A stretch of DNA of 64,000 nt from Candidatus Woesearchaeota archaeon. GTDB lineage: Archaea; Nanobdellota; Nanobdellia; Woesearchaeales; UBA583. The position numbers were made by a program, and so were the translations under genes. Under the pieces are notes generated by a model. It was not told the DNA's origin and searched no databases. It saw only the letters and a program-made list of their open reading frames with translations. The first letter of the stretch is position 1, and each line of letters begins with the position of its first letter. Positions 1 to 54,947 of the stretch are shown here, in pieces. Location: contig CP060218.1 in NCBI GenBank assembly GCA_023898345.1, positions 120,753-184,752 on the forward strand, written 5' to 3'.

Positions 1-1603
1 GACTTGTTCCACTGTTCGAGCATGAGCGCGATGGTTCCGCTGACGTGTGGCGCTGACATGGACGTTCCACACATAGTGTCATAAGCAAAATCGTAATCAT
101 CAACTCCATCTGAAACTTCTTGAGAATAATCTAAATTATTATAAATATCAATAAATCTATCTGTAATCGTTGAAGTTATTCCTTGACCTAATAAACCATT
201 CCCTCTACAACCTGGGGCAACTATTTCAGGTTTTATTCTTCCGTCGTCTGTTGGTCCCATACTACTGAAAATCGCACTTGAATTATCATCAGAATTAGTA
301 GCTCCAACTGAGACAATGTTTTTTGCAGATGCTTTAGGCAAGACAGTAGAGTAATTTATTAAAAATTCCAACCTTTCATTTCCAACAGCCCAGACAATAG
401 GAATTTTTTTACTTAAATATCCTATCACAATACTATCTAGTAATTCAGAAGTTAAAGTATAGTCACCATAATAAGATGAATTTGAAATAATGGCGCCCCA
501 AGAATTTGAAGCAACTCTTGCATTATAGGTATTAATTCCCTCATAATAATCTTCTTCAATATCTCCTGATTGATTGTAACCCGCAGGGTCATCTAATTCG
601 TATGAAACTAAACTAGCTTTAATTGCGATCCCTTTATAATTACTATTATTACTCCCATTTCCAATTAATATTCCTGCAACATGAGTTGCATGGTCCCCAA
701 CAAAATCAATTAGCTCTGGATGTTCATATCTTCCTATTAAGTCTATATGTTCATCGTAAAATGCAACATCATCTTCAGGGATTTCTAATTCAAATTGTAA
801 TCAACATTAATGACTTTTCTTGAATTTGCTAATTTATCCTCTGCAGGAGAACTTATGGTTTCAATTCTTTTAACCTCATCAATGTTTGATAAATCATCAA
901 TTTTATTTTCTGGAATTGAAATTGTTAAAGAGTTTATACTTTTAATTTTATTCAAAGACTCTCCCCCCATATTTTCAACTAAAGTTTCAGCTTTTTCAAA
1001 ACTAACTCCCATATGAAATTGAACCATTAGATAAACATTACCTTTGTCATCTTTTGCCCAATCTCCAATTTTATCTTCTCTAATATACTTAGATTGTTTA
1101 AATTCAGGTTTGACTTCATCAATACTTCTAACTAAATACTCGTCATTAAAGTTATTAGAATTTAGTTTCACATCTCCATCATCGTTAGTTGTGAAAATAT
1201 TATCTAAATCTTGACTGATTGAAACATACCAAGTGTCTGATGATATGTAACTTAACAATTCGATCCCTTCGTTTTTTAATTCTTTAATTTCTTCCTTAGA
1301 AGGATTTTTATTGAATTGTAAAATAGAGTATATTTTTTCATTGCTATCTAACTTCTTTGTCTTAGTTTTAATCTTAGAATTTATTTCTGAATTTGGTTTG
1401 TACTTTATATCTACAAACTTTACTTCTTTTGACTCTTTATTTTTATATGGAGAAACATCTATAGTTATGTTTTCTGAATTGTTAATAACTTCTACATTAT
1501 AGTTAACAGTTGTATTTGTTTCATTTAATGAGTTATTAAATGCAAATATACTTCCTATACAGGTTAAGAAAATTAAGAATAGAATTTCACTTATATTCTC
1601 CAT
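1..1603 (-). pseudogene. S8 subtilisin-like serine protease, paralog 1 (apparently frameshifted; 3' end runs off the window start)
   Basis: ORF 785..1603 gives a signal peptide plus propeptide-like N-terminus (YSILQFNKNPSKEEIKELKNEGIELL). My own translation of the minus strand from ~797 to 1 in another frame stays open. It reads LEIPEDDVAFYDEHIDL...GDHATHVAGILIGNGS...SNSWGA...GRIKPEIVAPGC...CGTSMSAPHVSGTIALMLEQWNK (subtilase Asp/His/Asn/Ser boxes). The frame change lies near 785-797. Confidence 0.6.
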
Positions 1604-1804
1604 TTACTTTTTTTGAATTAGAACTGAGAGTTAAAAATTTATAATTCAATTAGAGTAATAAATCTATTTTAGTAGGTTTTTTCCATAAATTCAAACTCAA
1701 GTTTAAGAGTTAATTAAAATCTTGGTAATGTAAGAAAATTGGTTAAAATATAAATTTGGTCTCCGAGATAAGTATAGAAAAATGTTATCTTAAAATATTT
1801 CAAA

Positions 1805-2134
1805 ATGAATTTATGGACAGAGCCAGGTAAACAAAATGTTTATATATATAATACTTGTAAATCTAGTATGAATCTTAAATTAAATCTAAAACCAAACAAA
1901 AAAAAGATACTTTATTCCTTATTGGGTTTAATTCTTCTTAGTCTTTTTTCTTATATGATAATAACTTATCTAAACAATCATTTCTTTAATCTTGGAGTTT
2001 GTACTGCTTCATATCCTGCTCGGTGTTCAAATAGTCCACTAAGTTTTTCGGGAGGATTAATAATTTCAATATTAATAACTATTGTTTATTACTTAACCCA
2101 ATCTTACTTTGATTATAAAAAATTAAATAATTGA
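1805..2134 (+). CDS. hypothetical small membrane protein
   Basis: ORF-track ORF with two hydrophobic segments; more likely starts at the internal MNLKLNLKPNKKK (1868). No recognisable domain. Confidence 0.3.
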   Translation: MNLWTEPGKQNVYIYNTCKSSMNLKLNLKPNKKKILYSLLGLILLSLFSYMIITYLNNHFFNLGVCTASYPARCSNSPLSFSGGLIISILITIVYYLTQSYFDYKKLNN

Positions 2135-2730
2135 CATCCTCCTCAGTCTAAAGACTCAGACTTTGCCTGATCCCGTCTTTTAGACGGGGCGAGGATTCCA
2201 CGTTAGCTACCTAAACTTATGTTCTTCCACATACTTTTTTGCTTTCTCCAAGGTGATATGTCCAACACTTCCTGAGAATTTTCCTGGACTCCACAAATGT
2301 CCCCTAGGATAAACTATCCGTAAATGGGGCATAAGAATAAACAAACATTTTGAAGTGTAACCTTTCAACTTACTAAGAGCCAAAATAGGGTCCATCTTAA
2401 GTGGGATGGACAAGATGAGATGAATGTGATCCAAATCAACTTCACTGTCAATGTGTTTGAAACCATATCTTTTACATTCTTCCTTTAGAAGAATCCTACA
2501 AAAATTCTTATATTTTTCAGAGATAAAAATTTTGTAGCGGTACTTTGTACACCACTTGACATGGTGTTCGTTCCACCCTACACAACGGCCGTTGCTATAG
2601 TCTTTGTAGTTTCTCATTTTCAAATGTCTCAAAAGAGACAGTCAAAGACTACATAACCACAAAAGAAACTTTTCAGAAAAAGTCGCCATTCATCCTCGGC
2701 CTAAAAGCACGAGGATTTCTGGCTAGCTAA
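2135..2730 (-). mobile_element. IS200/IS605-family insertion sequence (tnpA only), copy type 1
   Basis: About 600 bp unit containing a Y1 transposase gene, flanked by structured ends. Left: catCCTC...cccgtcttttagacgggg (2172-2189)...GAGGatt. Right hairpin: atCCTCGgcctaaaagcaCGAGGat (2692-2716). Both ends share cagtc(t)aaagact and gaggatt.c..g.tagcta. Exact ends not determined. Confidence 0.7.
2207..2617 (-). CDS. tnpA: IS200/IS605-family Y1 (HUH) transposase TnpA
   Basis: HVKWCTKYRYKIF, HUH box DHIHLILS, LKGYTS, LWSPGKFSGSVG...Y are typical TnpA_IS200 motifs. The track ORF starts at a TTG (2632); the first ATG is at 2617. Confidence 0.85.
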   Translation of the reverse strand: MRNYKDYSNGRCVGWNEHHVKWCTKYRYKIFISEKYKNFCRILLKEECKRYGFKHIDSEVDLDHIHLILSIPLKMDPILALSKLKGYTSKCLFILMPHLRIVYPRGHLWSPGKFSGSVGHITLEKAKKYVEEHKFR

Positions 2731-2803
2731 TTTAAGGAAATATTATCAGATGCAAAAGTCTGGATTATGCTAAAAAGAATTACAGACAAGAATATTATTG
2801 CTT

Positions 2804-3097
2804 TCATTTTTCACCCACGCAGGAATTATTTATTGAACACTTATTATTGATACAATTTGAAACTCCACAAGTAACGATTTTGCAAATTCCTTTTTGTTCA
2901 TAATTTGTTTGGTAAACATTGATTGGTTCACAAGTAGCAAATTGGAAACAATCACTATCTTGCTCACAATACTGTTTATCCATCATATATTTCGGATGTG
3001 TAATCCAAGCTGGATGTAGAATTACATATACTACCAATATCATAAGCAAAATACTTCCAACTATGATGCCGATTTTTTTTGAATTTATCTTAACCAT
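2804..3097 (-). CDS. Cys-rich membrane-anchored mini-protein (paralog of 7361..7681)
   Basis: N-terminal TM helix (IGIIVGSILLMILVVYVIL) followed by an ~60 aa domain with 8 Cys (YCEQDSDC...TCEP...CKIVTCGVSNCINNKCSINNSC). Start set at the conserved MVKIN (3097), which has a catataaag TATA-like box ~35 nt upstream. The track ORF extends to 3157. Confidence 0.5.
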   Translation of the reverse strand: MVKINSKKIGIIVGSILLMILVVYVILHPAWITHPKYMMDKQYCEQDSDCFQFATCEPINVYQTNYEQKGICKIVTCGVSNCINNKCSINNSCVGEK

Positions 3098-3745
3098 TTT
3101 TTTGAATATTTTTTTTGAAATTTTTTTCTTTATATGATTTGTGTTGAAAATTTGCAACTTGATTTTTTTTTCAAAACGGAGTTTTTTCTGTATGAAAAAA
3201 TCCTAAAAACCGCTCCCATTCACGTACACTTGCTCGACGTTGTTGAGGTGATCGCTTTCGTTACGCCAAGCTTCTCGTGCTGGTGTGTTCGGGTCGAGTG
3301 TCCAGGGATAAAACGTTTGTCCGGAGGGTGAGAGGAGTTTGAGATCAAGGTCGTTGATGAGGTTGGCTCCGGGAACGTCGTCCCAAGCTAGCGTTACTTT
3401 GAGTGAGCTTTGTGCGCTGATGTTGATTGCGTACACGTCCACGTCAGAGATGTCTGAAATGTTTGCCTCTAGGAATGTTCCGTTGATGATTCTGTCCACA
3501 GCTCCTTTGGCGTTGAGCAGTCCGTACCCGTTCACGTAGTCGGGGCCGTCTATTACTTGGTCACCATTTCCGGTTCTATTTAGGTCTGTCGTCGAGTCTA
3601 GCAAAAGGGCTTTGATTGTCGATGGGAGCGGATCTTCGTCGTAGCCAGACTTGTTCCACTGTTCGAGCATGAGCGCAATGGTTCCACTGACGTGTGGCGC
3701 GGCGAATGAGGTTCCGCAATTAAAACCATATGTATCATTGAGAAT
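3090..3745 (-). repeat. Shared GC-rich subtilase 3' module + downstream promoter segment (copy A)
   Basis: Near-identical at nucleotide level to 7675-8255, except one 48-nt deletion in that copy. Partly identical to 5455-5850 (3480-3622 equals 5603-5745, 143 nt with no mismatch) and to 1-78. Confidence 0.85.
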
Positions 3746-5175
3746 TGTAGAAATCATTCCAATGGAATTATTGTAACAACCAGGTGCGCTACCATTTCAG
3801 GTTTGATTAAACCCCCATTTGTAGGTCCACGACTACTATCGTTAACTATAGACAAATCCTTTTTGTTTACATTCCCGACACTAATAGTATTTTTTCCTGA
3901 TGCCTCGGGTGCAATTGTGTCATAACCATTAGTTGAACAATAGGACAAACCTGCATCATTACCTGCTGCGAATATAATTGGAATTGAAGTATTGTTATCA
4001 AAAACGATCTCATCAAATAATTCTGTCCGGGATGAGTAGTCTCCTAACTTGTAGCATAGTAAGAAGTTATTAACCAAAGATCTCCAAGAGTTTGATGCAA
4101 GAGAAACACCATTATTAATTGCACTTTTATAATTATTCGAAATGTCTACATTCAGGAAAACAAAATTGTACTCGTATGAAATCACCTCGGAGTTGGGTGC
4201 AACTCCGGAATAGTTTTCTGTAACGCTTCCATTTCCGATAATAATTCCAGTTACGAAAGTTGGATGGTTTGAGAATGAAGAGAATGAATTGTTGACAGAG
4301 AATCTATCTCTAAAATGATAAAAAGGACTTGTCTCTTCATAAACCAATACCTTAATACCATCATCTTTTAGTTCATAGGGCGAGCTAATTAATGAGGATG
4401 CTCTAATTATGTCTTTACTGTTATCAAGTGATTTAGTAATATTAACACTAGTTTCTTCTATTTTTTTAATTTGATCTATACTTGCTAAATCTGAAAGGAC
4501 TTTTACTGGAAATTCAGTTAATAAACCATTAGTCTCATAAAATGAACCTACTACCGCCCTTCCATTTTCTCTAACTAATTTTTTTGCTTCCATTATTTCA
4601 ATATCATCTTGAAAGGGTATATTTGCCTTTATTATTTGATTGGTATTTGACTTGTTGTTGTCTATGTAGGTTCTTTTGAGATGATTAGTTAGTTTAAAAT
4701 TATTTTTAACTACGTTTTTTATCAAATATTGATTATCAATATTTTCAGATCTTAATTTTAAGTATCCATCGACAACTTCAAAGATCTCATTAAATTCTCT
4801 TGAAAATTTTGCGTAGTAGGTATTACTTCCCAGAAATTCAATAATCTCTAAACCTTCAATTTTCAGGCTTTCAATTTCAGAGGATGATGGGTTTTTGTTA
4901 AATCTTACTATGGCATAATCTGAAGGTGAAATATTATTGAACTTTTTTGAAGTAAACTTCTCAAATTTAACTTCATTGCCAGTTACTTTGATATCCTTTA
5001 AATTGTTATTTTGATAAAAACTACTATTTTCTTGAACCTTTTTTTCAGATGTGTTATTAATTTCAAATCTGCTGACATTCTCTAAATTCGATTCATTTGA
5101 CAAAGAAGTGTTAAATGCAAAAACTATATTTATAGCCATGAAAAGCAAAACTAAAAATTGATATTGTCTATTCAT
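3203..5175 (-). pseudogene. S8 subtilisin-like serine protease, paralog 2 (frameshifted near 3781-3790)
   Basis: ORF 3754..5175 ends ...GGLIKPEMVAHLVVTIIPLE*. Shifting frame at gtagcgCAcctggttgt restores ...VAPGCYNNSIGMISTILNDTYGFNCGTSFAAPHVSG, which is ORF 3203..3757. The His box is degenerate (NHPTFVTG instead of HxTHVAG). Confidence 0.65.
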
Positions 5176-5286
5176 AGACTTTCTTTAACGCTTGACTTCT
5201 AAACACTTTATTTGTCTCAATAAAATGATTTCATCCTAAATTAAGAAAATAAAAATTTAAAATTAAATATCAACATATTTTTCAGT

Positions 5287-5415
5287 ATGGAGATAAAAAA
5301 TTTATTTCATAAATGGTGGTTCTGGTTAATAATTATTACGATTTTGATTGTGATTTTCTGGATATATTTTTCTACAAGGATTACTTCAGGTCCTGAACCC
5401 ATTCCTTTTTACTAG
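5287..5415 (+). CDS. possible 42-aa single-TM micro-protein
   Basis: Own translation: MEIKNLFHKWWFWLIIITILIVIFWIYFSTRITSGPEPIPFY*. It lies in the spacer between two subtilase genes and is below the ORF-track length cut-off. No other support. Confidence 0.2.
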   Translation: MEIKNLFHKWWFWLIIITILIVIFWIYFSTRITSGPEPIPFY

Positions 5416-5448
5416 AGACAACTAAAATTGTATCAGGGGAAAAGTACT

Positions 5449-7368
5449 TTATTGCAGACCAGGGTCATAGACTTGTTCCATCTCCGATGAACTCAGAGAT
5501 CTGTCCCAAGCAAGAGTGACTTTGAGGTGGCTTTCGTTTGTGATGTTGATTGCGTACACGTCAGTGTCTTCTATGTCGGTGATGTTCGCTTCGAGAAAGA
5601 GGCCGTTGATGATTCTGTCCACAGCTCCTTTGGCGTTGAGCAGTCCGTACCCGTTCACGTAGTCGGGGCCGTCTATTACTTGGTCACCATTTCCGGTTCT
5701 ATTTAGGTCTGTCGTCGAGTCTAGCAAAAGGGCTTTGATTGTCGAGGGGAGCGGGTCTTCGTCGTGGCCGGACTTGTTCCACTGTTCGAGCATGAGCGCG
5801 ATGGTTCCACTGACGTGTGGCGCTGCCATGGAGGTTCCACACTTGAATGCATAAGAATTGTTTGCGCTCGTTGCATTTGCACACCCTGAGGCTACTAATT
5901 CAGGTTTTATTCTTCCATCATCTACTGGGCCAAAACTGCTTGTTGGGAAAATACTTTTATCAAAATCAAGTGAACCAACAGCTAGAATATTCTTTGCAGC
6001 TTTTGGAGTATTGATAGTGTGGTAGGGATAAGCTAAATTATAAATTCCACAAGGATTATTGCTATATTCCTCGCGTTCATTCCCTGCTGAAAACACAATG
6101 GGGACGGAACCATAAGAGAAATTTTCACCTGAAACTACTTCGTCTAAAAAGGAGGCTACTAACTCATAGTCTCCGTACCTTCGACATAAGCTCTCGTTAT
6201 CGCTTGAACTGTCCAACTTGTCTTTTATAAGAAATCCCCAAGAATTACTAATGAGCTTAGATGCTTTTGTATCAATCCCAACTACATAATCTAAAACAAT
6301 GTCGGCAGTTAAATTGTACGTACTATTCTCTAATACATCTGCCCAAATAGTTGCTTCTGGAGCAACTCCAATTTGTGAGCTTAAGGAACCATTTCCAACT
6401 AATATTCCAGCAACATGGGTTGCGTGGTCTGTAATGTAACTGGTGTTGCTTACTGTCCAAGAAACTCGGCCACCTAAATCAGGATGATTTTTATCGGGAA
6501 TTCCGGTCTCATACTGAAAAATTTTTATTCCATTCCCATTTAGGTTATAGGGAGAAGTTTGCAAAGGTAAAATCATAGATAGATTTTTTGATGTAATTAA
6601 ATTTTCACTCTGTGGGAAAGGATAATTCTCTTGAACGAATGCAATTCCCGAGATTTCTAGAAGTTGAGAGATATTTTCTAAAGGGATTGAAAGAATTAAC
6701 CAGTTAACAATATCAACTTGAGAATAAATGGAACTGCCAAGAGTTTCGAGTTCTGATATCAAAGATTGTTTTACATCTGAGTAGTATTTTACAATGAGAA
6801 TAACATTACCATTTTTATCTAGATTGTAAGCTTCAAAAGTTCTTTCCAAAACATTTTTTGTTGTCTTCAAGTCTTTATTAATTTCAGAGACTGCGCGTAC
6901 TTTTGTAGTTTTGAGAACGTCGTTGAGAAGAGGATTATACTCTAAATTACTATAGTTTGTTGTGCTTGATTCTAAAAACAAAGAGGATGAGGATGGCAAA
7001 AGAGAAACGATGTAAGCATTCCCCCCAACATATTCGAGAGGTCTTATCCCCCGAGATTCTAATACATTGAGTTCTTCCTTTTCAAGTGGACTATAGAACT
7101 GAAGTAAAAAATATTCAGTAGATGAAAGATGTTTTAATTTAGATTCTACTTTAGAACTTAGACCTTCTTCTAGAACAGTATTTAATCTAAGGGTCAAATT
7201 TTTTGAACCTAAATCCTTTGGGAAAAAAAGAGAGCGAGAAAGAGTTTCGGAATTATTTAGATTTTGATTTTCCTCAGTAAGAACTGAAGTATTTAGAGCA
7301 GTCACGCTTGTTACACTGAACAGAAAAACAAAGAAAGAGGGAAAAAATAAGGCGTTTTTTCTATTCAT
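5449..7368 (-). CDS. S8 subtilisin-like serine protease, paralog 3 (only uninterrupted copy; C-terminal domain shortened)
   Basis: Signal peptide MNRKNALFFPSFFVFLFSVTSVTA. Motifs DHATHVAGILVGNGS, SNSWGF, GRIKPELVASGC, CGTSMAAPHVSG. After ...VTLAWD it lacks the ~45 codons present in copies at 3203 and 7788 and ends RSLSSSEMEQVYDPGLQ. Start set at 7368 (the ATG overlaps the upstream gene stop as ATGAATAG). Confidence 0.8.
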   Translation of the reverse strand: MNRKNALFFPSFFVFLFSVTSVTALNTSVLTEENQNLNNSETLSRSLFFPKDLGSKNLTLRLNTVLEEGLSSKVESKLKHLSSTEYFLLQFYSPLEKEELNVLESRGIRPLEYVGGNAYIVSLLPSSSSLFLESSTTNYSNLEYNPLLNDVLKTTKVRAVSEINKDLKTTKNVLERTFEAYNLDKNGNVILIVKYYSDVKQSLISELETLGSSIYSQVDIVNWLILSIPLENISQLLEISGIAFVQENYPFPQSENLITSKNLSMILPLQTSPYNLNGNGIKIFQYETGIPDKNHPDLGGRVSWTVSNTSYITDHATHVAGILVGNGSLSSQIGVAPEATIWADVLENSTYNLTADIVLDYVVGIDTKASKLISNSWGFLIKDKLDSSSDNESLCRRYGDYELVASFLDEVVSGENFSYGSVPIVFSAGNEREEYSNNPCGIYNLAYPYHTINTPKAAKNILAVGSLDFDKSIFPTSSFGPVDDGRIKPELVASGCANATSANNSYAFKCGTSMAAPHVSGTIALMLEQWNKSGHDEDPLPSTIKALLLDSTTDLNRTGNGDQVIDGPDYVNGYGLLNAKGAVDRIINGLFLEANITDIEDTDVYAINITNESHLKVTLAWDRSLSSSEMEQVYDPGLQ

Positions 7369-7681
7369 CTGCAGCTTCCCCCCTAGTAAGAAAACAAGTA
7401 TTTGTTTTCTCATTACAAGTAGAATAAAACTCGATACTACATTTACTGAGATTCCTTTTTTCTGGTAAATAATACTTATTTACTACTTTACATTCGTTTG
7501 TTCTTCCACAATCATCCCCTTTTTCGCAGTACAAAGGGTCGTTCAAATACCTCACATCAATGCCCATGTAATACGCTTTGATATTATTCTGATACATAAA
7601 ACCAAGGGCAATGAGGCACAGCACAATAACTATGCTCCCAACAAGAATCTTTTGTTTCTCACCTATGTTTATCCTAACCAT
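7361..7681 (-). CDS. Cys-rich membrane-anchored mini-protein, translationally coupled to subtilase 5449..7368
   Basis: MVRINIGEKQKILVGSIVIVLCLIALGF (TM helix), then YCEKGDDCGRTNECK...KCSIEFYSTCNEKTNTC (6 Cys). It shares the YCE.x.DC pattern and the MV(K/R)IN start with 2804..3097. Its stop overlaps the subtilase ATG by 8 nt. Confidence 0.5.
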   Translation of the reverse strand: MVRINIGEKQKILVGSIVIVLCLIALGFMYQNNIKAYYMGIDVRYLNDPLYCEKGDDCGRTNECKVVNKYYLPEKRNLSKCSIEFYSTCNEKTNTCFLTRGEAADE

Positions 7682-8255
7682 TTTTTTGAATATTCTTTTT
7701 GAAATTTTTTTCTTTATATGATTTGTCTTGAAAATTTTCACCTTTTTTTGTTTTTTCAAAGCGTAGTTTTTTCTGTATGAAATATCTCTACAATTCGCTC
7801 CCATTCACGTACACTTGCTCGACGTTGTTGAGGTGGTCGCTTTCATTACGCCAAGCTTCTCGTGCGGGTGTGTTCGGGTCGAGTGTCCAGGGATAAAATG
7901 TTTGTCCTGTCGGCGAGAGGAGTTTGAGATCAAGGTCGTTGATGAGGTTGGCTCCGGGAACGTCGTACCAAGCTAGCGTTACTTTGAGCGAGCTTTGTGC
8001 GCTGATGTTGATTGCGTACACGTCCACGTTAGAGATGTCTGAAATGTTTGCTTCTAGGAATGTTCCGTTGATGATTCGGTCCACAGCTCCTTTGGCGTTG
8101 AGCAGTCCGTACCCGTTCACGTAGTCGGGGCCGTCGATTACTTGGTCACCATTTCCGGTTCTATTTAGGTCTTCGTCGTAGCCGGACAGGTTCCACTGTT
8201 CGAGCATGAGCGCGATGGTTCCGCTGACGTGTGGCGCTGACATGGACGTGCCACA
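7675..8255 (-). repeat. Shared GC-rich subtilase 3' module + downstream promoter segment (copy C)
   Basis: See 3090-3745. Its 5'-most part (8186-8255) also matches window positions 1-78. Confidence 0.85.
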
Positions 8256-8264
8256 ATAAACCAC
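7788..8264 (-). pseudogene. Subtilase 3' fragment (Ser box to C-terminus only; no Asp/His region)
   Basis: MVYCGTSMSAPHVSGTIALMLEQWN... The homology starts exactly at the Ser box and abuts the unrelated gene at 8272. It carries an in-frame 48-nt deletion (DPLPSTIKALLLDSTT missing) relative to 3203..3757. Confidence 0.65.
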
Positions 8265-8271: not shown

Positions 8272-9213
8272 TTACTTCAAATGTAAATCAATCAGAGAGA
8301 CAACAACATCTTCAAGTTGTCCTAGGAGATCTTTGAAGAGTTGGGTAAGAACAAGATAGAGATTTAGGTTTTCTCCAAATTGGTCTCGACTTGCTTCAAA
8401 TTCTCGAAGGAGTGATTGTTTTTTGTCTTGTGCTAGTTTTAGATTAACATTTAGTTCTATGCCTGTGTGAAGAAGGTTTGTTACAAACTTATAATATTCG
8501 CAAAGTTGTTGTAGAAGAGAATCAAGGATGATGTGTTCTTTATTTGTTTCTTCTTTGAGATAACGTGCAGTTCTTTTGAGAATATCTCCAATATTTTCAA
8601 AGGCGGAAACTATGCGCCAATAGTAAATTTCGTTTTTAATTTCTTCGTGTCTTTCTTGAAGTTCTAGGTTATAATTTATTGCTTTGTAACAGAGAAAAGT
8701 GAGTTTGTTAATGTGTGCGTCGAATTGGGTAACAATTTGATAACGGCTGTTTTTTTCTTCGGGTGAGCGTAGTTTGTCAAAAACTTTTTTCTCCATTTCA
8801 ATAATTTCAAAAAGAAGTGATCTCAAATTTAATTCTCTAAGGTGTGTGAGATCTCTGAGGATAATTTTTTCATTGGATAATTCTACAATTTCAAGAGAGC
8901 TAAGTTTTGACATATATACTTTTATTTCATTAAGTCGTTCTAGGAGGTCTTCTCCTACGATGCTAATTTCTTTGTAATTTTTTAGGTAAAAAGAGATTAA
9001 TTCTCGGTTGAAGATTTTTAGGGATTTTCCGTCAAGTTCGACGACAGCTTTTTTTTCTTCGTGGCGGTCACGAAGGTTTACCATTAGGGAGTCTCCTCGT
9101 TCTGAGAGAAAAACTTGGGAGCCTTTGTCGAGCTTGTGTTTCTTAACCCATTCGTTTGGCAAGGTAACAACGTATGAAGAATTTCCAAATTTGATGATTT
9201 TTCTAGGATCCAT
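8272..9213 (-). CDS. AbrB/SpoVT-type DNA-binding domain + PhoU-like domain protein (phosphate-uptake-regulator-like)
   Basis: N-terminal IIKFGNSSYVVTLPNEWVKKHKL (AbrB/MazE-type swapped-hairpin motif), followed by a helical PhoU-like repeat region. Start set at MDPRK (9213), which has an AT-rich TATA-like stretch ~25 nt upstream. Confidence 0.7.
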   Translation of the reverse strand: MDPRKIIKFGNSSYVVTLPNEWVKKHKLDKGSQVFLSERGDSLMVNLRDRHEEKKAVVELDGKSLKIFNRELISFYLKNYKEISIVGEDLLERLNEIKVYMSKLSSLEIVELSNEKIILRDLTHLRELNLRSLLFEIIEMEKKVFDKLRSPEEKNSRYQIVTQFDAHINKLTFLCYKAINYNLELQERHEEIKNEIYYWRIVSAFENIGDILKRTARYLKEETNKEHIILDSLLQQLCEYYKFVTNLLHTGIELNVNLKLAQDKKQSLLREFEASRDQFGENLNLYLVLTQLFKDLLGQLEDVVVSLIDLHLK

Positions 9214-9382
9214 GAGAAATAATATTACTATATATTTATAATATTTCGTGAAAAAAAGTTTCGCCAAATCCTAAGATTTGCTCTTTGGAACCATTCTTAG
9301 CAGTTTCAGAAATTGCAAATTTCATGTTTTGAAGAAAATCTTCCTCTCTTCTTCACTCTGAATGACATAGATATTTGGCTAT

Positions 9383-9484: not shown

Positions 9485-10519
9485 ATGATTTTAACTGAAA
9501 GCTTAACTGCTCTTGTGAAAGAAGAATTTAGTGTTTTAGCTGCTTCTTATCAAAAGTATGTTTTTACAAGGGAAAGACTTTTGAGACCTCTTGCAGAAGA
9601 TCTTAGGGGACTAAGTACATCTTCCGTTGAAGGTTTAGATCATTATGAAGGAGATAATTTTATAATTTTTAAGTCGAAACTTGAAGATTTTGGAGAATTT
9701 GATGAATCTGGGCTTATGCGAAGAAAATATATGGGAGATACTAAAAGAATTCGTGATGCTTACTCTAGAAGTTTTTGGTGTTTTAATGGTTATATGAAAG
9801 AGTTATTTGAAGATTCAAATACATGGTTAAAATCAAGAGAAACTGGTTTAGAATTAGGAATTAAAAAAGAAATCCAAGAGGAGATTGGCTGTTTAAGGAC
9901 AAATCTTAGACTTGCTGAATATGCATTTTTTAATAGGATGTCTCTAACTTTTGGAGATGATTTCAAAGCTGCATACTTATTTTGGGGAGGCTCATATCTT
10001 CATCAAAGAAGTATCATTTTAAATGAAAATGGTGACTTTTGTGATGATACTTCTCAAAGAGGTCATTGGGATTATGTTGACCAGGGGTTTTCATCTTCTT
10101 CTCTACCTAAAGAAAAAAATATTACTAGAAAACTTAAAGAAAAATGTAGAATTGTTAACCCAGAATTTTTAACTAAGGGTACTTTCATTCCTGATTTTAC
10201 TAATATAAAACATTATGAAGAACTTTTGAGACATGCAAAAAGTACGAGAGTTATTTCTTGGAGAATTCCAAGTGAATTATCTAACAAAACATTAAAGCAG
10301 GTTCCTAGAGAAATACTTCTTGGTTCTTATGATTGGATTCATTATGATAGAGACTTTACGACAAATTTTTCTGCACAGGGGGTTGTCTTTGATCTGTTAA
10401 AACCCAAGGGAATAATTTCTTGTAAGAATGGGTGGCATAGTGGATATCAAAATGATGAAAGGTTTGAAACTCTATATTATAATGAAGAAGGAGACTATGC
10501 ATTATTTAGGAAAGTCTGA
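9485..10519 (+). CDS. hypothetical protein
   Basis: 344-aa ORF with ATG start and ttataaata ~35 nt upstream. No domain recognised. Confidence 0.5.
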   Translation: MILTESLTALVKEEFSVLAASYQKYVFTRERLLRPLAEDLRGLSTSSVEGLDHYEGDNFIIFKSKLEDFGEFDESGLMRRKYMGDTKRIRDAYSRSFWCFNGYMKELFEDSNTWLKSRETGLELGIKKEIQEEIGCLRTNLRLAEYAFFNRMSLTFGDDFKAAYLFWGGSYLHQRSIILNENGDFCDDTSQRGHWDYVDQGFSSSSLPKEKNITRKLKEKCRIVNPEFLTKGTFIPDFTNIKHYEELLRHAKSTRVISWRIPSELSNKTLKQVPREILLGSYDWIHYDRDFTTNFSAQGVVFDLLKPKGIISCKNGWHSGYQNDERFETLYYNEEGDYALFRKV

Positions 10520-10576
10520 TTTTCACACCTAATGGTTAGTGGTGGATGCTGTCTAAAGGAGACGTCTTTCTAGTAG

Positions 10577-12049
10577 TCAACTTGTCTTTTTACTTCCTTT
10601 TGCAATCGTTTTCGTGAACTCCTGTTTCGACAAATGTTCCTTCTTTGCAAGCCGTAAAAGCATTTTGTCAAACTTCGATCCGTACTGCGCTGCTTTCTTT
10701 TTCCGATACGCATAAGGAAGGTCAAGACCAAGATCAAGAGCATATTCTCGAAGGATAATTTTGCTTTCAGATTTGTCGTCGCGAAGTTTGAAACTGGGGT
10801 CGAGCGGCAAAGCAAAATGGATCAAATCATAATCAAGATAGGGAAGTCGAAGTTCAATTCCTTGCGACATCATAAGAAGGTCGTCTCTGTACAAATCACG
10901 CTCGTGAAGACAAAGCAGACCGTGCAGACATTCCTCATTCACATCCTCAACTTTTTTGTGTCTTCGATATCCTGCAAAAAGTTCTTCAGAGCCCAGTCCA
11001 GAAAAACAGATTCTCACTTTGTCTTTTTTCATTTGACGTGCACAAAAATAAAAGGAAAGAGCAACGGAAACTTTCATATACTCGTCACTTTCAATAATTT
11101 TCATGAGTTCGGGAAGAGCTGCTTGCGTTTCTTTCTCGGACACTTTCACAACCTTCAAAGGGAAACCATATTTTTGCGCAATTTCTTTGGCATAGAGAAA
11201 ATCTTCGGCAACTTCAATATTTCCTCCTTCGGCGTATGCTGTGTAGCAGACAAAAGGAACTTGTAATTCCTGAAGTTTCAGAGCAATCAGTGTGGAATCA
11301 ATACCGCCAGAAAAAAGAAGCCCGACACTTTGTTTGCTTTCACTTTGGCGTCTCACTGCTTGGAGAAAATATTTTGAAAGTTCTTTTTTTGCTTCATCGA
11401 AGGATTTACTTCTTTTTCTTTTTTCTTTGAAGGGACACTTTTGCTCAGAAAATGATAGTTCTTGTGTGCTTAGGGAATATGTTAAGTTTTGTCGAGGGCA
11501 GAGTTCTTTTCCTTTTCCTGAAAGTGCTTTATTTTCTGAGGCAAAGTAAAATTCTCCGTTTTTTTCATGCACATAGTACAAAGGTTTTTCTCCCAAATAA
11601 TCTCTTTGAAGCAAAAGAAGATCTTTGTGCAGGTAGGCAAAAGCGTAAGGGCCGCGAAGTTCAAGAAAAATTTTTTCTCGCAAGGTTTTCTTTTCCTGTG
11701 TCATATCAAGAAGAGCATGAAGAAGTTCTGCATCGTTTTTTGCAGTTATCTTATATTTTTGAGAAAGTTCTTTCCAGTTGTAAATTTCACAGTTCGCGAC
11801 AAAGACGCTTTCTTTTCCAAGAAGTGGTTCAGGAACAAAGCCGACAATGGCGTGCAAGGCATGAGCTAGTGCAAAGTTGCTTTTTTGTCCTTTGTGTTCT
11901 TTTAGTTCTTGAAGACTTTTGCCAAGAAAAACTTTGTCGTTCGTGTACAAACCATAGGCATCTTTTCCTCTGTTTTTCATGTGGGCTAGCATGGCAAGCG
12001 TTTTCTTTGTCGCATCTTCTGTATGAAAGGCTCCACTTATTGAACACAT
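10577..12049 (-). CDS. asnB: asparagine synthase (glutamine-hydrolysing)
   Basis: N-terminal MCSISG (Ntn Cys2 amidotransferase), PP-loop SGGIDSTL, overall AsnB architecture. Confidence 0.9.
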   Translation of the reverse strand: MCSISGAFHTEDATKKTLAMLAHMKNRGKDAYGLYTNDKVFLGKSLQELKEHKGQKSNFALAHALHAIVGFVPEPLLGKESVFVANCEIYNWKELSQKYKITAKNDAELLHALLDMTQEKKTLREKIFLELRGPYAFAYLHKDLLLLQRDYLGEKPLYYVHEKNGEFYFASENKALSGKGKELCPRQNLTYSLSTQELSFSEQKCPFKEKRKRSKSFDEAKKELSKYFLQAVRRQSESKQSVGLLFSGGIDSTLIALKLQELQVPFVCYTAYAEGGNIEVAEDFLYAKEIAQKYGFPLKVVKVSEKETQAALPELMKIIESDEYMKVSVALSFYFCARQMKKDKVRICFSGLGSEELFAGYRRHKKVEDVNEECLHGLLCLHERDLYRDDLLMMSQGIELRLPYLDYDLIHFALPLDPSFKLRDDKSESKIILREYALDLGLDLPYAYRKKKAAQYGSKFDKMLLRLAKKEHLSKQEFTKTIAKGSKKTS

Positions 12050-12735: not shown

Positions 12736-13725
12736 AAGTCAGTTGCATAAATCCTCCCTATCTGTGAGATTTTGCAACCACACAAAACACTGCACTATTC
12801 TAAACACACTTTGAAGTTCATACTTCAAAGATCTACAAGCATCCCCAAACCTTCGTTTAAATGCACTAAAACTACGTTCTACTGCAGTTCTGAGTCCATA
12901 ATCAGAAAAATATCTCCATAAGTCAAAATCAATTTGTTGCAAAGTAAATTCTCTGTATCTCAAAGGTTGAGCCAAAATTTTTGGTTTAGCATTTTTGCGA
13001 ATGGGGATTACTGTTTGAATTTGATTTTTGTAACAAAAATCAAATAATTCTATTGCGTCATAGCCACCATCCCCAAATATTTTTTTTGGAAAAATGCTTA
13101 TTTCCTTTAAATTCCTTAAAGCAATTTTTGCATCTCCTCCCCCTTTTTCAGTGGTGACATCAAAAAAAACAACTTCATGTCTTTCATTAATACCAAAATG
13201 AATTTTGGTAAAACTTCTCCTTGTTTTCCATTTATAGGCCATGTATCCTGACCGTTTTACTTGGCTCATTCCCGTGCTATCAACAATCAAATACTTATAT
13301 CTCTTATTTGTAAAATTGTGTTGTTTAACCTCTGCTTTTTGTACAATTCTACGCCAAAGTGTAGTATAAACAGCAACTCTGGGAAGTTTCAAATAATTGC
13401 TTAAAGCAAGAAGGAAGCCTTCTAACTCACGAAATGTGAGTTGATGAATGAATCTTAGTCTTGAACAAAATTCAATGAAATTTTCGGGATAAATTTCAGG
13501 TCTGCCTTTGCAACCTGTTTGAACAGGTTGCCATTCTTGACTCAACCAAGAATGCAAAACTATAAATCCTTCGTGAACATATTTATTTCTGTTGTGAGCT
13601 TTCATTTAGCGATAAAGTTCTCACAACTTTAGTTCTAAAAGTTAAGATGTCACTGGGCTTCCAGTCGCAGCAACCTTAGAAATCAAGTGGAAATTTAATT
13701 TACAAATGATTTATGCAACTGACTT
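12736..13725 (-). mobile_element. IS5/IS4-like insertion sequence, 990 bp, with 18-bp TIRs and a 9-bp target-site duplication
   Basis: Left TIR aagtcagttgcataaatc (12736-12753). Right end gatttatgcaactgactt (13708-13725) is its perfect reverse complement. Flanked by the direct repeat tctctcagg at 12727-12735 and 13726-13734. Confidence 0.88.
12739..13605 (-). CDS. DDE transposase (IS5/IS4 family, DDE_Tnp_1-like)
   Basis: LIVDSTG..., GDGGYDAIELFDF..., RTAVERSFSAFKRRFG are typical D, D and E region motifs. The stop codon lies inside the left TIR. Confidence 0.85.
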   Translation of the reverse strand: MKAHNRNKYVHEGFIVLHSWLSQEWQPVQTGCKGRPEIYPENFIEFCSRLRFIHQLTFRELEGFLLALSNYLKLPRVAVYTTLWRRIVQKAEVKQHNFTNKRYKYLIVDSTGMSQVKRSGYMAYKWKTRRSFTKIHFGINERHEVVFFDVTTEKGGGDAKIALRNLKEISIFPKKIFGDGGYDAIELFDFCYKNQIQTVIPIRKNAKPKILAQPLRYREFTLQQIDFDLWRYFSDYGLRTAVERSFSAFKRRFGDACRSLKYELQSVFRIVQCFVWLQNLTDREDLCN

Positions 13726-17309: not shown

Positions 17310-18428
17310 CTAGAGAAATCTTTCTTTAAGTTTGTTTTTGTTTTTCTCAAGAAAAAACTTAAGAATTGGTAGGTCTTCAATTTTGATTTTCCCAATAAAC
17401 AAATCGTTAATGTCGTTTTCTTCTGCAAATTCTTTTATTTTAAAGTAGCCCTTAAAATAAACATAGTCTTTTGTGTAGCCTCCGTGCTGAGACGTGTCGC
17501 AGAGATTTCTTTTTGCTCTAAGGGAAAGTGTGAAGGCATCGTTTTCTTTAAATTTATATTTTCTTAGTGTATGAAAAAGTTCGTAAAAACTTTGAGTTTG
17601 GGCAAAGTGAGTTGCAAGGACTCTGCCTGCATAAATAAAGAGTTGGGCTTTTGAAAGAACATGATTTAAGTCTTCTGCGTAGACAGCAAGGCCTTCTTCA
17701 GTTTCTAAATAATTGGCAGTTCCTGTCTGAAGGAGTTTTATGCCAAAATTTTTACAGTTCCAGTAACGCATATAGTGCACTCCAATTTCGTGAACTCTAA
17801 GGCGCTCTAAATCGAGTGTGGTAAATGCTTCAAGAGGGTTTATTTTAATTTCTCCCTCTTTAGAATTGATGTTCAATTTGTTTGCTAAAGGTTTGAAAAT
17901 AATTTTAATATCTTCCCCAGTTTTTCGTTTAACTTCCTTTTGGAGTTCTTCGCCAACTTTTTGTGGTGTAATTCTTCGAAAGCGAACTTTTTCTCTTTTG
18001 TATGTTTTGCAGAATTGTTGGGCTTTTTTTACTATTTCTGGAGAGGGGATTCCTTTTGCTTGGATAATGTATTGTGTGGATGAAGTTTCTCCCCAATGCT
18101 GAAATGCTTTTGCAATATAGTAACGTTCAAGACTTTTTTCTTTGAGAAGTTTTTTGAAACCGAAGTGGTCGTTCTTTATGTCAATCTTAAAGCTGCGAAG
18201 TTTCTCGATATCTGCATCTTTGTACAATAGTTTTTCGTAGGTGAATTGGGGGTTGTACACTTCTTTTTTTTCAAGTGCAGCAAAAAATTTCTCTTTTTCT
18301 TCTTTGCTGTTCAAAGGTTTTGGGTAGTTATCGTCGTGACTATCTGGAATAATTTTTGAAAGTTTTTTTTCGATTTCCATTACTTCTTCAAGATAGGCTT
18401 TCATTGTTCTAGCTTTAGATTTATTCAT
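17310..18428 (-). CDS. DUF1704/MATCAP-like putative metallocarboxypeptidase
   Basis: HExxH (VHEIGVH) followed by ETEEGLAVYAE, which resembles the QEGLA motif of the DUF1704 family. By-eye family call. Confidence 0.55.
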   Translation of the reverse strand: MNKSKARTMKAYLEEVMEIEKKLSKIIPDSHDDNYPKPLNSKEEKEKFFAALEKKEVYNPQFTYEKLLYKDADIEKLRSFKIDIKNDHFGFKKLLKEKSLERYYIAKAFQHWGETSSTQYIIQAKGIPSPEIVKKAQQFCKTYKREKVRFRRITPQKVGEELQKEVKRKTGEDIKIIFKPLANKLNINSKEGEIKINPLEAFTTLDLERLRVHEIGVHYMRYWNCKNFGIKLLQTGTANYLETEEGLAVYAEDLNHVLSKAQLFIYAGRVLATHFAQTQSFYELFHTLRKYKFKENDAFTLSLRAKRNLCDTSQHGGYTKDYVYFKGYFKIKEFAEENDINDLFIGKIKIEDLPILKFFLEKNKNKLKERFL

Positions 18429-18468: not shown

Positions 18469-18600
18469 GTAAATAAAGAAATTGCTAAAATGTCCTTATT
18501 CCAATCGAAGCAGAGCTCCGGAGCATTATGGAAATTTTCAAGAGGCGATTTCATTACTCCCCGCGGGGTGGTTGCAGCAGAGCTGCTGGTATAATGCCCA
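18469..18600 (+). repeat. repeated intergenic element, copy A (with candidate micro-ORF 18490-18594)
   Basis: gtaaataaagaaattgctaaaATGtccttattccaatcgaagcagagctccggagcattatggaaattttcaagagg... aligns with 33017-33105. A partial copy is at 19307-19325 and an inverted, shortened copy at 56630-56684. Confidence 0.6.
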
Positions 18601-18649
18601 GCTAAGGAAACAAAGAGTTAAGAATCATTTTTCATTACCTCCTTGTTTT

Positions 18650-27429: not shown

Positions 27430-28315
27430 CAAGAAGGCTCCCTTAATGGGAGTCAGTTGTAAGCTCTCAAACTTCTTCAAAGAATGTGTCTAAAGATTTT
27501 TGTTTGTTTATCTCCATTCTTTTTGCAATCTTATATTTTTCTGCATAGCAAGCATACTCCTTCCATTGGTTTCTGATGTACCCAAAAACTGTTAGTGAAC
27601 TTACATTTCCAATGCTACTTCCAAAGTAGCTTCTACTGAAAAGCTCTTTTTTGAGAGCTTTTCTTAAAATGGGAAACATTTGTACAATCCAGTCTTCAAG
27701 TCTTTGCCGTGTCATCTGAATAAATCTTCTCGGGTCTGTCAAATTATCCAAACTTACGAACATGTGGATGTGTTCTGGCATAACTTCGCATGCGAATACT
27801 TCCCAACCATTTTCCTTTACAATTTCAGGTAGGTAATACGCAATAAGTTCGCGTACTTCTTTGAAGAGCACTTTGCATCTTCCTTTTGTTACGAAAACTA
27901 TGTGGCAGTTTATGAGAAACTTTGCTCTTCGCGAAGTTTTATATCTCTCTAATTTTTCTTCAATATTCTTGCAATACTTTTCTGGATTGAAATGTGTTGC
28001 AGGATCAATGTCTAAAGCCCTTTTTTCAAGGAATCTCACAAGTTTCCAATCTACATTTTTCATGTGGTTTTTGTGTTTTCTTTGTTTCATTTTAGTTTCG
28101 CTTGGGACTTGACTTTCGCCAAGTCCTGAGCTTAAAAGGGCTTTAGAGTAAAGACAACAATATTTCTTTAGCGTAGCGACTCTTGAAAAGAGGAAAGAAT
28201 TATGTTTGATTTACGTCCCTTTATTTCCGAACGAAGTGAGAGTAACTAAATTTCGTTTTAAAAAACAGAATTTGTTGAGACAAAGAGGCTCCCTAAACGG
28301 GAGTTTCTGTTTTTT
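27430..28315 (-). mobile_element. IS200/IS605-family insertion sequence (tnpA only), copy type 2
   Basis: The Y1 transposase gene is flanked by same-orientation hairpins GGCTCCCttaatGGGAGTC (27436-27454) and GGCTCCCtaaacGGGAGTT (28287-28305). The latter is enclosed by AAAAACAGAA/TTCTGTTTTT. A further hairpin GGACTTG...CAAGTCC is at 28105-28126. Exact ends not determined. Confidence 0.7.
27467..28090 (-). CDS. tnpA: IS200/IS605-family Y1 (HUH) transposase TnpA, long form
   Basis: HIVFVTKGR, HUH box EHIHMFVS and a C-terminal Tyr region (GYIRNQW). It has an N-terminal ~55-aa extension relative to 2207..2617. Confidence 0.78.
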   Translation of the reverse strand: MKQRKHKNHMKNVDWKLVRFLEKRALDIDPATHFNPEKYCKNIEEKLERYKTSRRAKFLINCHIVFVTKGRCKVLFKEVRELIAYYLPEIVKENGWEVFACEVMPEHIHMFVSLDNLTDPRRFIQMTRQRLEDWIVQMFPILRKALKKELFSRSYFGSSIGNVSSLTVFGYIRNQWKEYACYAEKYKIAKRMEINKQKSLDTFFEEV

Positions 28316-28323
28316 TAGAAATT

Positions 28324-28623
28324 TCAGAAAATCAAAGATTTTTCACTAAAATCTGGCTGGCCTGCAATTCTTTCCCATTGGTGTCCAGAAGAAAAACATC
28401 CATAAATACCATGCAGAAAATAAGGGGAGTTTATTATCTTTGAAACTATTTCTTTGCTTGATGAGTTGCTACTTTTATGTTGCTTCTGTTTTGCTTCTTC
28501 TTCAAGTTTCTCAAGTGTGGAAAAAATAAATAGTAGGACTTCTTTGTTCCAATCGAAGTTCGCAGTAAATTTCTGCATTCTTTCTAACATTTGGTCTTCA
28601 ATATCGAAGGATATTTTAGCCAT
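28324..28623 (-). CDS. hypothetical protein (possibly the 5' part of a gene split by the IS)
   Basis: 99-aa ORF ending 9 nt from the IS-proximal inverted repeat. No domain recognised. Confidence 0.3.
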   Translation of the reverse strand: MAKISFDIEDQMLERMQKFTANFDWNKEVLLFIFSTLEKLEEEAKQKQHKSSNSSSKEIVSKIINSPYFLHGIYGCFSSGHQWERIAGQPDFSEKSLIF

Positions 28624-33016: not shown

Positions 33017-33105
33017 GTAAAGAAATCGCTAAAATGTGTCTATTCCAATCGGAGCCGAGCTCCGGGGCCTTACAGCAATTTTCAAGATGAAATTTCTAAC
33101 TCCTG
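33017..33105 (+). repeat. repeated intergenic element, copy B (with candidate micro-ORF 33034-33090)
   Basis: gtaaagaaatcgctaaaATGtgtctattccaatcggagccgagctccggggccttacagcaattttcaagatga aligns with copy A at 18469. Confidence 0.6.
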
Positions 33106-33191
33106 GCTGGGCTTGGGCAATCTTTTATTATTAGTTTTAAGGATGCCTCAAAAGCTTGCCTTGGAGATAGTCTTTTTTGGCAATTTCTCTT

Positions 33192-49479: not shown

Positions 49480-50196
49480 TTATTCTCTTTTAGCTTTAAA
49501 ACAATATTGTTCATAACTTACTTCCTTCGACAAAATGGGGTACACATATTCCCCTTCACTTCTTGTCAAAGAAAAATCCTTTAGAGACTTCTTTTTTTTC
49601 ATCGTTCCTAGACAAAAATAAGAGTCTGGAAAACAGACTTTTCTTTTTCTTTCCTGAATAAGTTCGAGATTAGCAAAGAATGAAAGAAGTACATTTTCTC
49701 CTCTTTTTATGGCATGTTTCATTCCACTTGCAACAGAAATTTCAAGGGACACAGCAGAGTTAAATTGGAAAATCAAAGAAAATCTAGCATTTGGAATAAA
49801 AACTCTTTTCTTAATAAAAAATAAATCTAAAAAACCTGTTTTTTTCAATTCCTGATTTACATAAATTAAAAACGGAGCAGTCTTTGACGTTGTGGAATGC
49901 AAATCAATAACATAGTCAAATTTTTCTAATTCCCTTTTGATAATCTTTGTAAGATTTCCTTCACAAGACTTTGAATCCTTAGAAAAAGCTCTATTCAAGT
50001 CCTCATCAATAAAACGTTTTTTCTGAGTAAAAGCTTGAGGATGAACAAGATAAAAAGAAATTTCTCCTTTCAAGAGATGCAGTTTTTTCAATCTTCTAAA
50101 CACATTCAATGAATAACTTTCATCTCCATGAACACACGCCAAAATGGCAATCTTTGGACCAGATAATCCTGAGTCAATAGTTCGCAGTAATTTCAT
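49480..50196 (-). CDS. succinylglutamate desuccinylase/aspartoacylase (AstE/AspA) family protein
   Basis: GPKIAILACVHGDE...DLNRAF...VIDLHST pattern. The first ATG is at 50196; the track start at 50202 is a TTG. Confidence 0.68.
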   Translation of the reverse strand: MKLLRTIDSGLSGPKIAILACVHGDESYSLNVFRRLKKLHLLKGEISFYLVHPQAFTQKKRFIDEDLNRAFSKDSKSCEGNLTKIIKRELEKFDYVIDLHSTTSKTAPFLIYVNQELKKTGFLDLFFIKKRVFIPNARFSLIFQFNSAVSLEISVASGMKHAIKRGENVLLSFFANLELIQERKRKVCFPDSYFCLGTMKKKKSLKDFSLTRSEGEYVYPILSKEVSYEQYCFKAKRE

Positions 50197-50372: not shown

Positions 50373-50391
50373 CAATGACGAGACAAAGCTT
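50373..50391 (+). repeat. 19-bp direct repeat, left copy (caatgacgagacaaagctt)
   Basis: Exact match to 56799-56817. The two copies bracket the AT-rich islet. Confidence 0.9.
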
Positions 50392-54945: not shown

Positions 54946-54947
54946 AA

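Follow-up and report, generated by a model that had tools for sequence, protein, structure and literature searches.

A GC-rich 3' module in tandem subtilase loci of a woesearchaeal archaeon, probably imported and spread among paralogs by recombination

Concerted evolution of tandem paralogs through segmental gene conversion is known from duplicated tuf genes and from mycobacterial PE_PGRS pairs. In naturally transformable bacteria, mosaic pbp genes and homology-facilitated illegitimate recombination (HFIR) yield mosaics that arise by recombination between lineages. Abrupt changes of GC content within a gene are exemplified by mouse Fxy, which spans the pseudoautosomal boundary, and by GC-rich converting gene families. 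Segmental conversion and concerted evolution of gene pairs have been studied in mammals (PMC2720389). The locus described here lies in a stretch of 64,000 nucleotides (nt) of Candidatus Woesearchaeota archaeon (assembly GCA_023898345.1, contig CP060218.1, positions 120,753 to 184,752), hereafter the window. At its left end it carries, on the minus strand, four loci of S8 family serine proteases (subtilases). A first-pass annotation of the sequence had proposed that these loci share a GC-rich 3' module grafted onto divergent AT-rich 5' halves, and the observation is confirmed. In what follows, g1 to g4 denote the subtilase loci and s1, s2, and s4 small Cys-rich genes; L-numbers are database contigs and P-numbers homologous proteins.

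The interpretation favored here, with a probability of roughly 60%, is that of a tandem array of operon-like units, each with a small Cys-rich gene ahead of a subtilase gene, in an AT-rich chromosome of the DPANN/Nanoarchaeota type, in which a GC-rich tail derived from a higher-GC relative has been spread among the paralogs by recombination or gene conversion and whose copies are now decaying.

The composition step was located with 100-nt windows and two-segment likelihood change points. The 5' parts of the loci show a GC content of ~0.22 to 0.43, as opposed to 0.47 to 0.60 in the segments 3203-3750, 5450-5900, 7800-8260, and 1-100. On the 5' side, the change points at 3718, 8255, and 73 compare with positions 3718, 8255, and 71 for the start of the CGTS motif around the catalytic serine (the Ser box), which begins with a TGY (Cys) codon; in g3, the change point at 5893 lies ~50 nt upstream of the motif start at 5841. 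On the 3' side, the change points at 3210 and 7796 fall at stop codons. The GC content of third codon positions (GC3) is 0.60 to 0.65 in the modules, 0.16 to 0.26 in the 5' halves, and 0.27 ± 0.085 in 39 long open reading frames (ORFs) of the window. GC1 is likewise elevated (0.56 versus 0.33 to 0.45), and no stretch of comparable composition is found in any real gene of the window. The module is therefore atypical for the host genome, as xenologous DNA would be. Distant homologs of the same architecture served as a control: in 73 of them, the GC3 of the module-equivalent segment minus that of the upstream 170 codons is 0.002 ± 0.054, with a maximum of 0.18, versus +0.35 to +0.46 in the window copies. 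Both a GC step at the Ser-box codons and a module compositionally foreign to its 5' partners and to the remaining genes, as first described, are thus recovered by calculation. The value of ~40% GC given at the time for the core does not hold, since the whole window has 34.9%.

Sequence identity changes at the same codons, again in agreement with the initial description. When g1, g2, and g3 are aligned by codon, their nucleotide identity is 0.42 to 0.65 upstream of the Ser box, apart from one conserved motif window at 0.62 to 0.75, and 0.85 to 1.00 from the Ser box on. Positions 3480-3622 equal 5603-5745 over 143 nt without a mismatch, as had been noted by eye, and the match allows no one-base extension at either side. 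With 41 differences in the 342 nt compared between g2 and g3, none of 100,000 permutations reaches an exact run of this length (p<1e-5). The match reported between the very start of the window and 8186-8255 is found as 6-71 versus 8190-8255, at 98.5% identity.

The modules had also been called near-identical. This does not hold over their whole length, as the modules form a mosaic of at least three GC-rich variants with identities of 75 to 98%. At the nucleotide level, g2 and g4 share 85% (with a 48-nt gap), g2 and g3 88%, and g3 and g4 75%. The g3 module is 88% identical to 3380-3730, with sharing that reaches only down to 5503. Patches of the variants are combined differently among g1, g2, g3, g4, and the related contigs L001, L002, and L007, and L001 carries an extra 30-nt variant patch.

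The two parts of these genes have different relationships. The 5' cores of g1, g2, and g3 are 38 to 44% identical to each other and up to 55% identical to relatives elsewhere, where each core has its closer kin, and the N-terminal part of g1 is 69% identical to P0098. The modules are 90 to 98% identical to each other, versus 67 to 80% to all others. Separate phylogenies, which the first-pass annotation had suggested as a check, are incongruent. In the 5' tree, the partners of g3 are P0099 and P0100 (bootstrap 100) and those of g1 are P0098, P0094, P0101, and P0097 (bootstrap 94), whereas the module tree unites g1 with g2 (100) and both with g3 (84) in a single clade. This tract is closer between paralogs than between orthologs, its tree disagrees with that of its flank, and its identical runs are too long for its overall divergence, a combination typical of gene conversion. 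The steps in GC content and identity, the incongruent trees, and the 143-nt run together indicate concerted replacement by ectopic recombination or gene conversion. The copies still exchange patches by ectopic homologous recombination or gene conversion. The earlier suggestion of recombination, gene conversion, or a spreading foreign module, as opposed to ordinary divergence after duplication, is supported accordingly. Amino acid conservation across the family does favor the module region (61 to 80%, compared with 31 to 62% in the 5' part). Nevertheless, a 3' part that is merely more conserved is ruled out by synonymous identity over long runs, the incongruent trees, and the difference in GC3.

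The repeat unit exceeds the GC-rich block. Homology among g1, g2, and g4 runs past the stop codon, through an AT-rich spacer, and ~40 codons into the small gene that follows. Thus, 3084-3202 matches 7668-7787 across AT-rich DNA beyond the stop codon, with 86% identity between 3084-3187 and 7668-7771. The shared spacer and small-gene start are 86 to 98% identical between copies, yet have only 19 to 30% GC and a GC3 of 0.25 to 0.34. The s2 gene is homologous to s4, to s1 (found in L004), and to a gene that in L094 lies directly upstream of the subtilase. Because of this last arrangement, the array can be read as a series of units that each consist of a small gene and a subtilase, with the repeat reaching from the end of one such unit into the start of the following one.

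All window copies end alike, at ...NNVEQVYVNGS, which corresponds to approximately residue 405 of 434 in the KP-43 protease structure (PDB 1WMD); the last ~25 residues of the β-jelly roll are missing. In the g2 module, all tblastn hits of the family stop at 3212-3221, and the stop context and the truncation point are identical in all copies. The intact relatives P0098 (1,136 amino acids), P0094, and P0013 contain an S8 domain, a complete jelly roll, and two LamG domains. A tblastn search of the window with five intact relatives revealed neither a LamG remnant nor a displaced AT-rich 3' fragment. An integrative element that displaced the native 3' ends, considered as a further possibility, was rejected on the same negative result. 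A single GC-rich segment of ~520 bp, together with the spacer and the small-gene start, has replaced the native 3' ends of g1, g2, and g3; the shared truncation and stop context, the lack of a LamG remnant, and the shared spacer and small-gene start argue for a single origin of the unit.

No copy retains a complete Asp-His-Ser triad in one uninterrupted frame, and none has a complete C-terminal β-jelly roll. Matches to the S8 domain (Pfam ID PF00082) are found in g3 (E=1.2e-33), in the 5' part of g2 (E=5.9e-18), and in the g2 module (E=2.6e-07), where Pfam recognizes the C-terminal end of S8 and, weakly, PPC. All four copies have the Ser box; a His box is found in g1 and g3, and g2 has a degenerate form of it (NHPTFVTG). 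Subtilase loci do lie at 1-1603 and 3203-5175, as first annotated, but each is broken by a frameshift. In g1, a frameshift or deletion at ~746-800, shared with L004, removes the Asp/Glu-box region: the ORF 785-1603 stops, reading resumes in another frame, and the tblastn alignment with P0098 splits at 746/800. In g2, the tblastn alignment splits at ~3787, the ORFs 3754-5175 and 3203-3757 are in different frames, and the same split is found in L002. The g3 gene lacks most of the jelly roll. The g4 copy has lost 48 nt in frame and, compared with the g1 module (as seen in L004), differs at seven sites, six nonsynonymous and one synonymous. Imperfect direct repeats, CGACGA(C)AGACC, bound this deletion (window 8160-8170 versus L004 1495-1545), a pattern that replication slippage would be expected to leave. 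The loss of the last jelly-roll strands and of LamG, together with the frameshifts in g1 and g2, suggests that the array consists largely of decaying gene remnants whose products appear to be non-functional.

At the position of the catalytic Asp, members of the subfamily have a conserved Glu, as judged by eye: FQYETG in g3 (~6480-6500), VYEE in g2, and ILQYE, IFQYETG, and similar sequences in P0094 to P0101. The comparison uses the KP-43 motif IVAVADTG. The more distant homologs P0014 and P0019 retain Asp. The subfamily may therefore possess a Glu-His-Ser variant of the triad.

The relatives bear on the source of the GC richness. In the intact relatives, which come from Nanoarchaeota contigs of 26 to 30% GC (L089 with P0098, L091 with P0094, and L006 with P0013), GC3 is 0.10 to 0.19 throughout, with no step; the GC-rich tract is thus absent from the orthologs of close relatives. 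In a related genome (L092, from a contig of 839 kb), a module fragment lies ~700 nt from a GC-rich C-terminal LamG fragment with a GC3 of 0.57. The latter is a stand-alone ORF of 167 amino acids (L092 10950-11453) in a locus of 36.6% GC that ends like the C terminus of the family (...GISYE), and it is probably another remnant of the same, once-complete GC-rich homolog. The opposite arrangement occurs in L094, where an AT-rich island of ~1.9 kb (~9520-11500; GC 0.20 to 0.29, GC3 0.13 to 0.19) comprises a small Cys-rich gene and the 5' half of the P0099 subtilase. The island terminates at the Ser box among neighboring genes with a GC3 of 0.37 to 0.49, a mirror image of the window. Because this relative has its graft at the same motif, crossovers in exchanges between lineages that differ in GC content might fall repeatedly at the Ser box. 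Judged from its composition and from the step-free intact relatives, the module appears to be foreign, most likely imported from a higher-GC relative within the same archaeal subfamily by a crossover at the conserved Ser box.

Such an import could have proceeded as follows. The part of a GC-rich homolog between the Ser box and the middle of the jelly roll would have become attached to an AT-rich spacer lying upstream of a small gene, possibly first at the g4 position, whose left end matches the chimeric junctions to the base; g4 may represent either the site where the block first landed or a copy that served as donor. Ectopic recombination would then have copied the block into the neighboring paralogs, with a left anchor within its first codons and a right anchor in the paralogous small genes. 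The left limit would lie at the Ser box because the GC-rich segment begins there and there is no homology further upstream. This copying would have deleted the native 3' ends of the paralogs, that is, the last jelly-roll strands and the LamG domains. Patchy conversion would persist among the copies and account for the strain differences seen in L001, L002, and L007, in loci that would at present be decaying.

Several observations weigh against this course of events. No donor was found in word-indexed and exhaustive representative protein searches, in genome, metagenome, and viral contigs, or by blastn against plasmids and phages. Plasmid, phage, and viral collections gave no hits, the best match in JGI metagenomes is 49%, and the genome-contig search returned just L004 and a distant Woesearchaeota hit. 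The closest non-chimeric relatives (71 to 78% amino acid identity) are all AT-rich-coded, a GC-rich 5' half is seen nowhere, and the module groups with no donor clade, its own clade having no settled position in the family tree. There is no sign of amelioration: in a small sample with approximate polarity, changes from G/C to A/T (S>W) number 27 versus 32 in the opposite direction (W>S) by majority rule, and 10 versus 9 among isolated singletons. The module variants differ by a synonymous divergence (dS) of 0.2 to 0.38 with a nonsynonymous-to-synonymous ratio (dN/dS) of 0.12 to 0.22, so they diverged under constraint, at a GC-rich equilibrium, and apparently already joined to the AT-rich spacer. 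The module and the native AT-rich Ser boxes share at most 8 nt of uninterrupted identity, so the first grafts needed microhomology or illegitimate joining. Finally, the order and pairing of the repeats are those of the assembly alone. L003, an AT-rich stand-alone fragment with 77% protein identity, was considered as an ameliorated copy, and the module tree gives it no firm placement.

Illegitimate joins that involve the module do occur, as documented by L092 (9660-10021) and L093 (1-111). Here the first ~34 codons of an IS200-like tnpA are fused to the middle of the module at an 8-nt microhomology, ACATTTCA; the fusion is a deletion or rearrangement scar. The gene concerned is a second IS200-like tnpA (Pfam ID PF01797), present in the window at 27467-28090 (minus strand) and 27988-28349.

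Alternatively, a native AT-rich module could have become GC-rich in place, through GC-biased conversion (or linked selection) acting on the sole part of the paralogs similar enough for frequent conversion. This explanation is unlikely but has points in its favor. On the 5' side the GC-rich block coincides with the homogenised block; the balance of W>S and S>W changes suggests that a GC-rich equilibrium is maintained within an AT-rich genome; the variants diverged with the AT-rich spacer attached and hence within such a genome; and the module belongs phylogenetically to an AT-rich Nanoarchaeota subfamily. In addition, recombination and GC3 are reported to be linked in bacteria and some archaea (PMC4450053). 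On the other hand, the enrichment does not extend over the whole tract: the spacer and small-gene start are equally homogenised (86 to 98%) at 19 to 30% GC, and the GC content falls exactly at the stop codon. An AT-rich island that ends at the same motif, as in L094, is impossible for a GC drive. The GC-rich LamG fragment of L092 lies outside the repeated module, the 73 distant homologs show no systematic bias of GC3 toward the 3' end, and GC3 would have had to shift from ~0.15-0.3 to 0.63, a very large change in a prokaryote. It is doubtful that the module, instead of being imported, was driven to a GC3 of ~0.63 by a GC bias tied to recombination and limited to the one segment that the paralogs can still exchange.

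An artefact of assembly or binning, in which reads of a foreign GC-rich subtilase were joined at Ser-box k-mers or the repeat was collapsed or mis-threaded, is quite improbable. Exact repeats of up to 143 nt do exceed k=141, related assemblies break within the module (L001 and L007 end there), and the halves are paired differently between assemblies. In L002 (ERZ27309389), the 5' half of g2 is joined to a g3-type tail and to the downstream spacer of g3; in L007 (GCA_020430405.1), the 5' half of g3 is joined to a type-A tail. These pairings represent either real polymorphism from unequal crossover or conversion, or path switching of the assembler through the 143-nt repeat. A further contig, L004, is binned into a Bdellovibrionales metagenome-assembled genome (MAG). 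Yet at all four loci of the window, AT-rich DNA of the same lineage flanks the module on both sides and in frame, and a chimera would require two precise switches per locus. Moreover, six contigs that stem from other samples and assemblers (L001, L002, L004, L007, L092, and L093) show the junctions again: the g1 junction in L004 and L001, that of g2 in L002, that of g3 in L007, and the stop-codon junction in L004, L092, and L093. In L004 the last is reproduced together with the shared spacer, whereas L092 and L093 match across the same stop and then depart downstream from the sequence of the window. The AT-rich flanks and the recurrent junctions make a chimeric assembly unlikely.

L004 (JAGRAE010000267.1) is 98.5% identical to window positions 1-1286, and its g1 runs on into a full module and the small Cys-rich gene s1. 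It is a contig of 2.6 kb and 1.6x coverage with the archaeal g1 locus, deposited in a "Bdellovibrionales bacterium" MAG, into which it was probably mis-binned.

A functional cassette system of the pilS/pilE type, in which the bare copies (g4 and the L092 fragment) would be silent donors that vary a surface-exposed C-terminal part, is very unlikely. Open-frame copies without a 5' half exist (g4, the L092 fragment, and L003), and the mosaics that differ from strain to strain, together with the 30-nt patch of L001, would fit such a system. However, change in the module is purifying and not diversifying (dN/dS of 0.12 to 0.22), the jelly roll is incomplete in every copy, and the recipient genes are frameshifted or truncated, leaving no fully intact locus for expression. 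The g4 copy itself appears to be under relaxed constraint, with its six nonsynonymous changes versus one synonymous.

Diversity-generating retroelements (DGRs) are common in DPANN archaea, and a repeated segment at the 3' end of target genes plus one non-coding-like copy would suit a DGR or other templated retrohoming with g4 as the template repeat; this was rejected, as the mismatches of g4 with the other copies involve all four bases and are not adenine-specific, the unit measures ~520 bp plus the spacer, and no reverse transcriptase domain is found in 50 window ORFs scanned against Pfam.

The features of the array are listed in Table 1. Read on the minus strand from 9267 to 1, their order is the AbrB-domain gene, g4, s4, g3, g2, s2, the IS200-like tnpA, and g1.

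Table 1. Features of the subtilase array at the left end of the window
Feature	Position	Strand	Remarks
g1, start of GC-rich module	1..71	-	TGYGGMACSTC motif at 71, GC change point 73; remainder lies left of the window
g1, AT-rich 5' part (propeptide-like N terminus and catalytic core)	72..1603	-	GC3 0.16-0.20
IS200-like Y1 transposase gene between s2 and g1	2207..2632	-	Pfam PF01797, E=1.3e-23
s2, small membrane-anchored Cys-rich gene; 5' part belongs to the repeat unit	2804..3157	-	GC3 0.25
AT-rich spacer, part of the repeat unit	3158..3202	-	3163-3462 versus 7748-8047, 93%
g2, GC-rich module from the Ser box to the truncation within the β-jelly roll, 172 codons	3203..3718	-	GC1-3 0.56/0.41/0.60
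g2, AT-rich 5' half with frameshift at ~3787	3719..5175	-	GC3 0.25
g3, divergent short tail of lower GC, jelly-roll core missing	5449..5502	-	alignments; GC3 0.39
g3, GC-rich module from the Ser box to ...VTLAWD; 3' third is variant B	5503..5841	-	GC3 0.65
g3, AT-rich 5' half, the sole uninterrupted catalytic 5' part	5842..7368	-	PF00082 E=1.2e-33; GC3 0.26
s4, small Cys-rich membrane gene directly upstream of g3; 5' part belongs to the repeat unit	7361..7804	-	
g4, stand-alone module copy without a 5' half	7788..8255	-	starts 16 nt past the stop of the upstream gene
AbrB/MazE-domain gene, upstream flank of the array, outside the repeat	8272..9267	-	Pfam PF04014

The window encodes the archaeal housekeeping proteins aRF1, a NOG1-type GTPase, AspRS, and CysRS, and the closest database relatives of the subtilase loci are labeled as Nanoarchaeota MAGs. 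Rfam and tRNA scans of the window gave no matches, and database look-ups of the g3 product returned no exact record. Outside the array, the window contains a DDE transposase (Pfam ID PF01609) at 12739-13605 and, at 17310-18428 on the minus strand, an ORF that matches MATCAP (Pfam ID PF08014; E=3.5e-38), a family of microtubule-associated tyrosine carboxypeptidases, in an archaeal chromosome. A low-GC island at ~50000-56300 (24 to 30% GC versus 35%) comprises a CARDB-domain surface protein, an FtsX/ABC transporter pair, and an HTH_10 regulator. A repeated element of ~137 nt (GC 0.50 to 0.57, copies ~85% identical) is found at 18474-18609 and 33017-33111, with a partial match at 56641-56684, and at 69-207 of L004, where it sits within g1 at the equivalent of window position ~1284. 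All three insertions are preceded by ...AAAG. The element has no Rfam match and looks like a mobile element derived from a miniature inverted-repeat transposable element (MITE) or from IS200/IS605.

As a natural marker of intragenic recombination in DPANN-type archaea, the step is unusually clean; it dates the exchanged block and delimits it to the codon. The balanced W>S and S>W pattern in an AT-rich genome is a small unexplained signal that could be used to test for GC-biased conversion in archaea, and the module's compositional equilibrium is the only aspect that might lift the case beyond the known kind. There are practical consequences as well: the repeat breaks short-read assemblies and has led one contig into a bacterial MAG, and truncated, frameshifted remnants get annotated as "S8 family serine peptidase."

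In architecture, the family resembles the KP-43-type subtilases, which consist of an S8 domain and a C-terminal β-jelly roll (PDB 1WMD; SubHal, 5FAX). The closest solved structure is that of the KP-43 protease, 1WMD, to which P0098 aligns over residues 311-700 (E=4.7e-24), including the His and Ser boxes and the jelly roll. In contrast to KP-43, members of the archaeal family carry two LamG domains in addition and a Glu at the expected position of the catalytic Asp, and the window copies lack the last jelly-roll strands.

The abrupt intragenic rise of GC3, which coincides with a changed recombination regime, is reminiscent of mouse Fxy. Here, however, an adjacent and equally homogenised spacer stays AT-rich, a relative has a mirror-image island, and no W>S bias is seen. 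If the GC content had nevertheless been driven up in place, the locus would be an archaeal counterpart of the Fxy step and a very strong prokaryotic case of a process like GC-biased gene conversion.

With the mosaic pbp genes and HFIR products, the locus shares a foreign block within a resident gene, a crossover at a conserved motif, and a step within the reading frame. It differs from them in that the host is an archaeon, no donor has been found, the block has spread among paralogs, and the products are apparently non-functional. As in concertedly evolving paralogs, paralogs are closer to one another than to their orthologs over a bounded, sharp-ended tract, with mosaic variants, long exact runs, and discordant segment trees. 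In contrast to those paralogs, the tract here is compositionally alien (GC3 0.63 versus 0.27), begins at the same codon in every copy, truncates a domain, and links 5' halves with just 38 to 44% protein identity. The array thus represents a kind of event that is already known, namely, mosaic paralogs formed by recombination or gene conversion and probably seeded by transfer between lineages.

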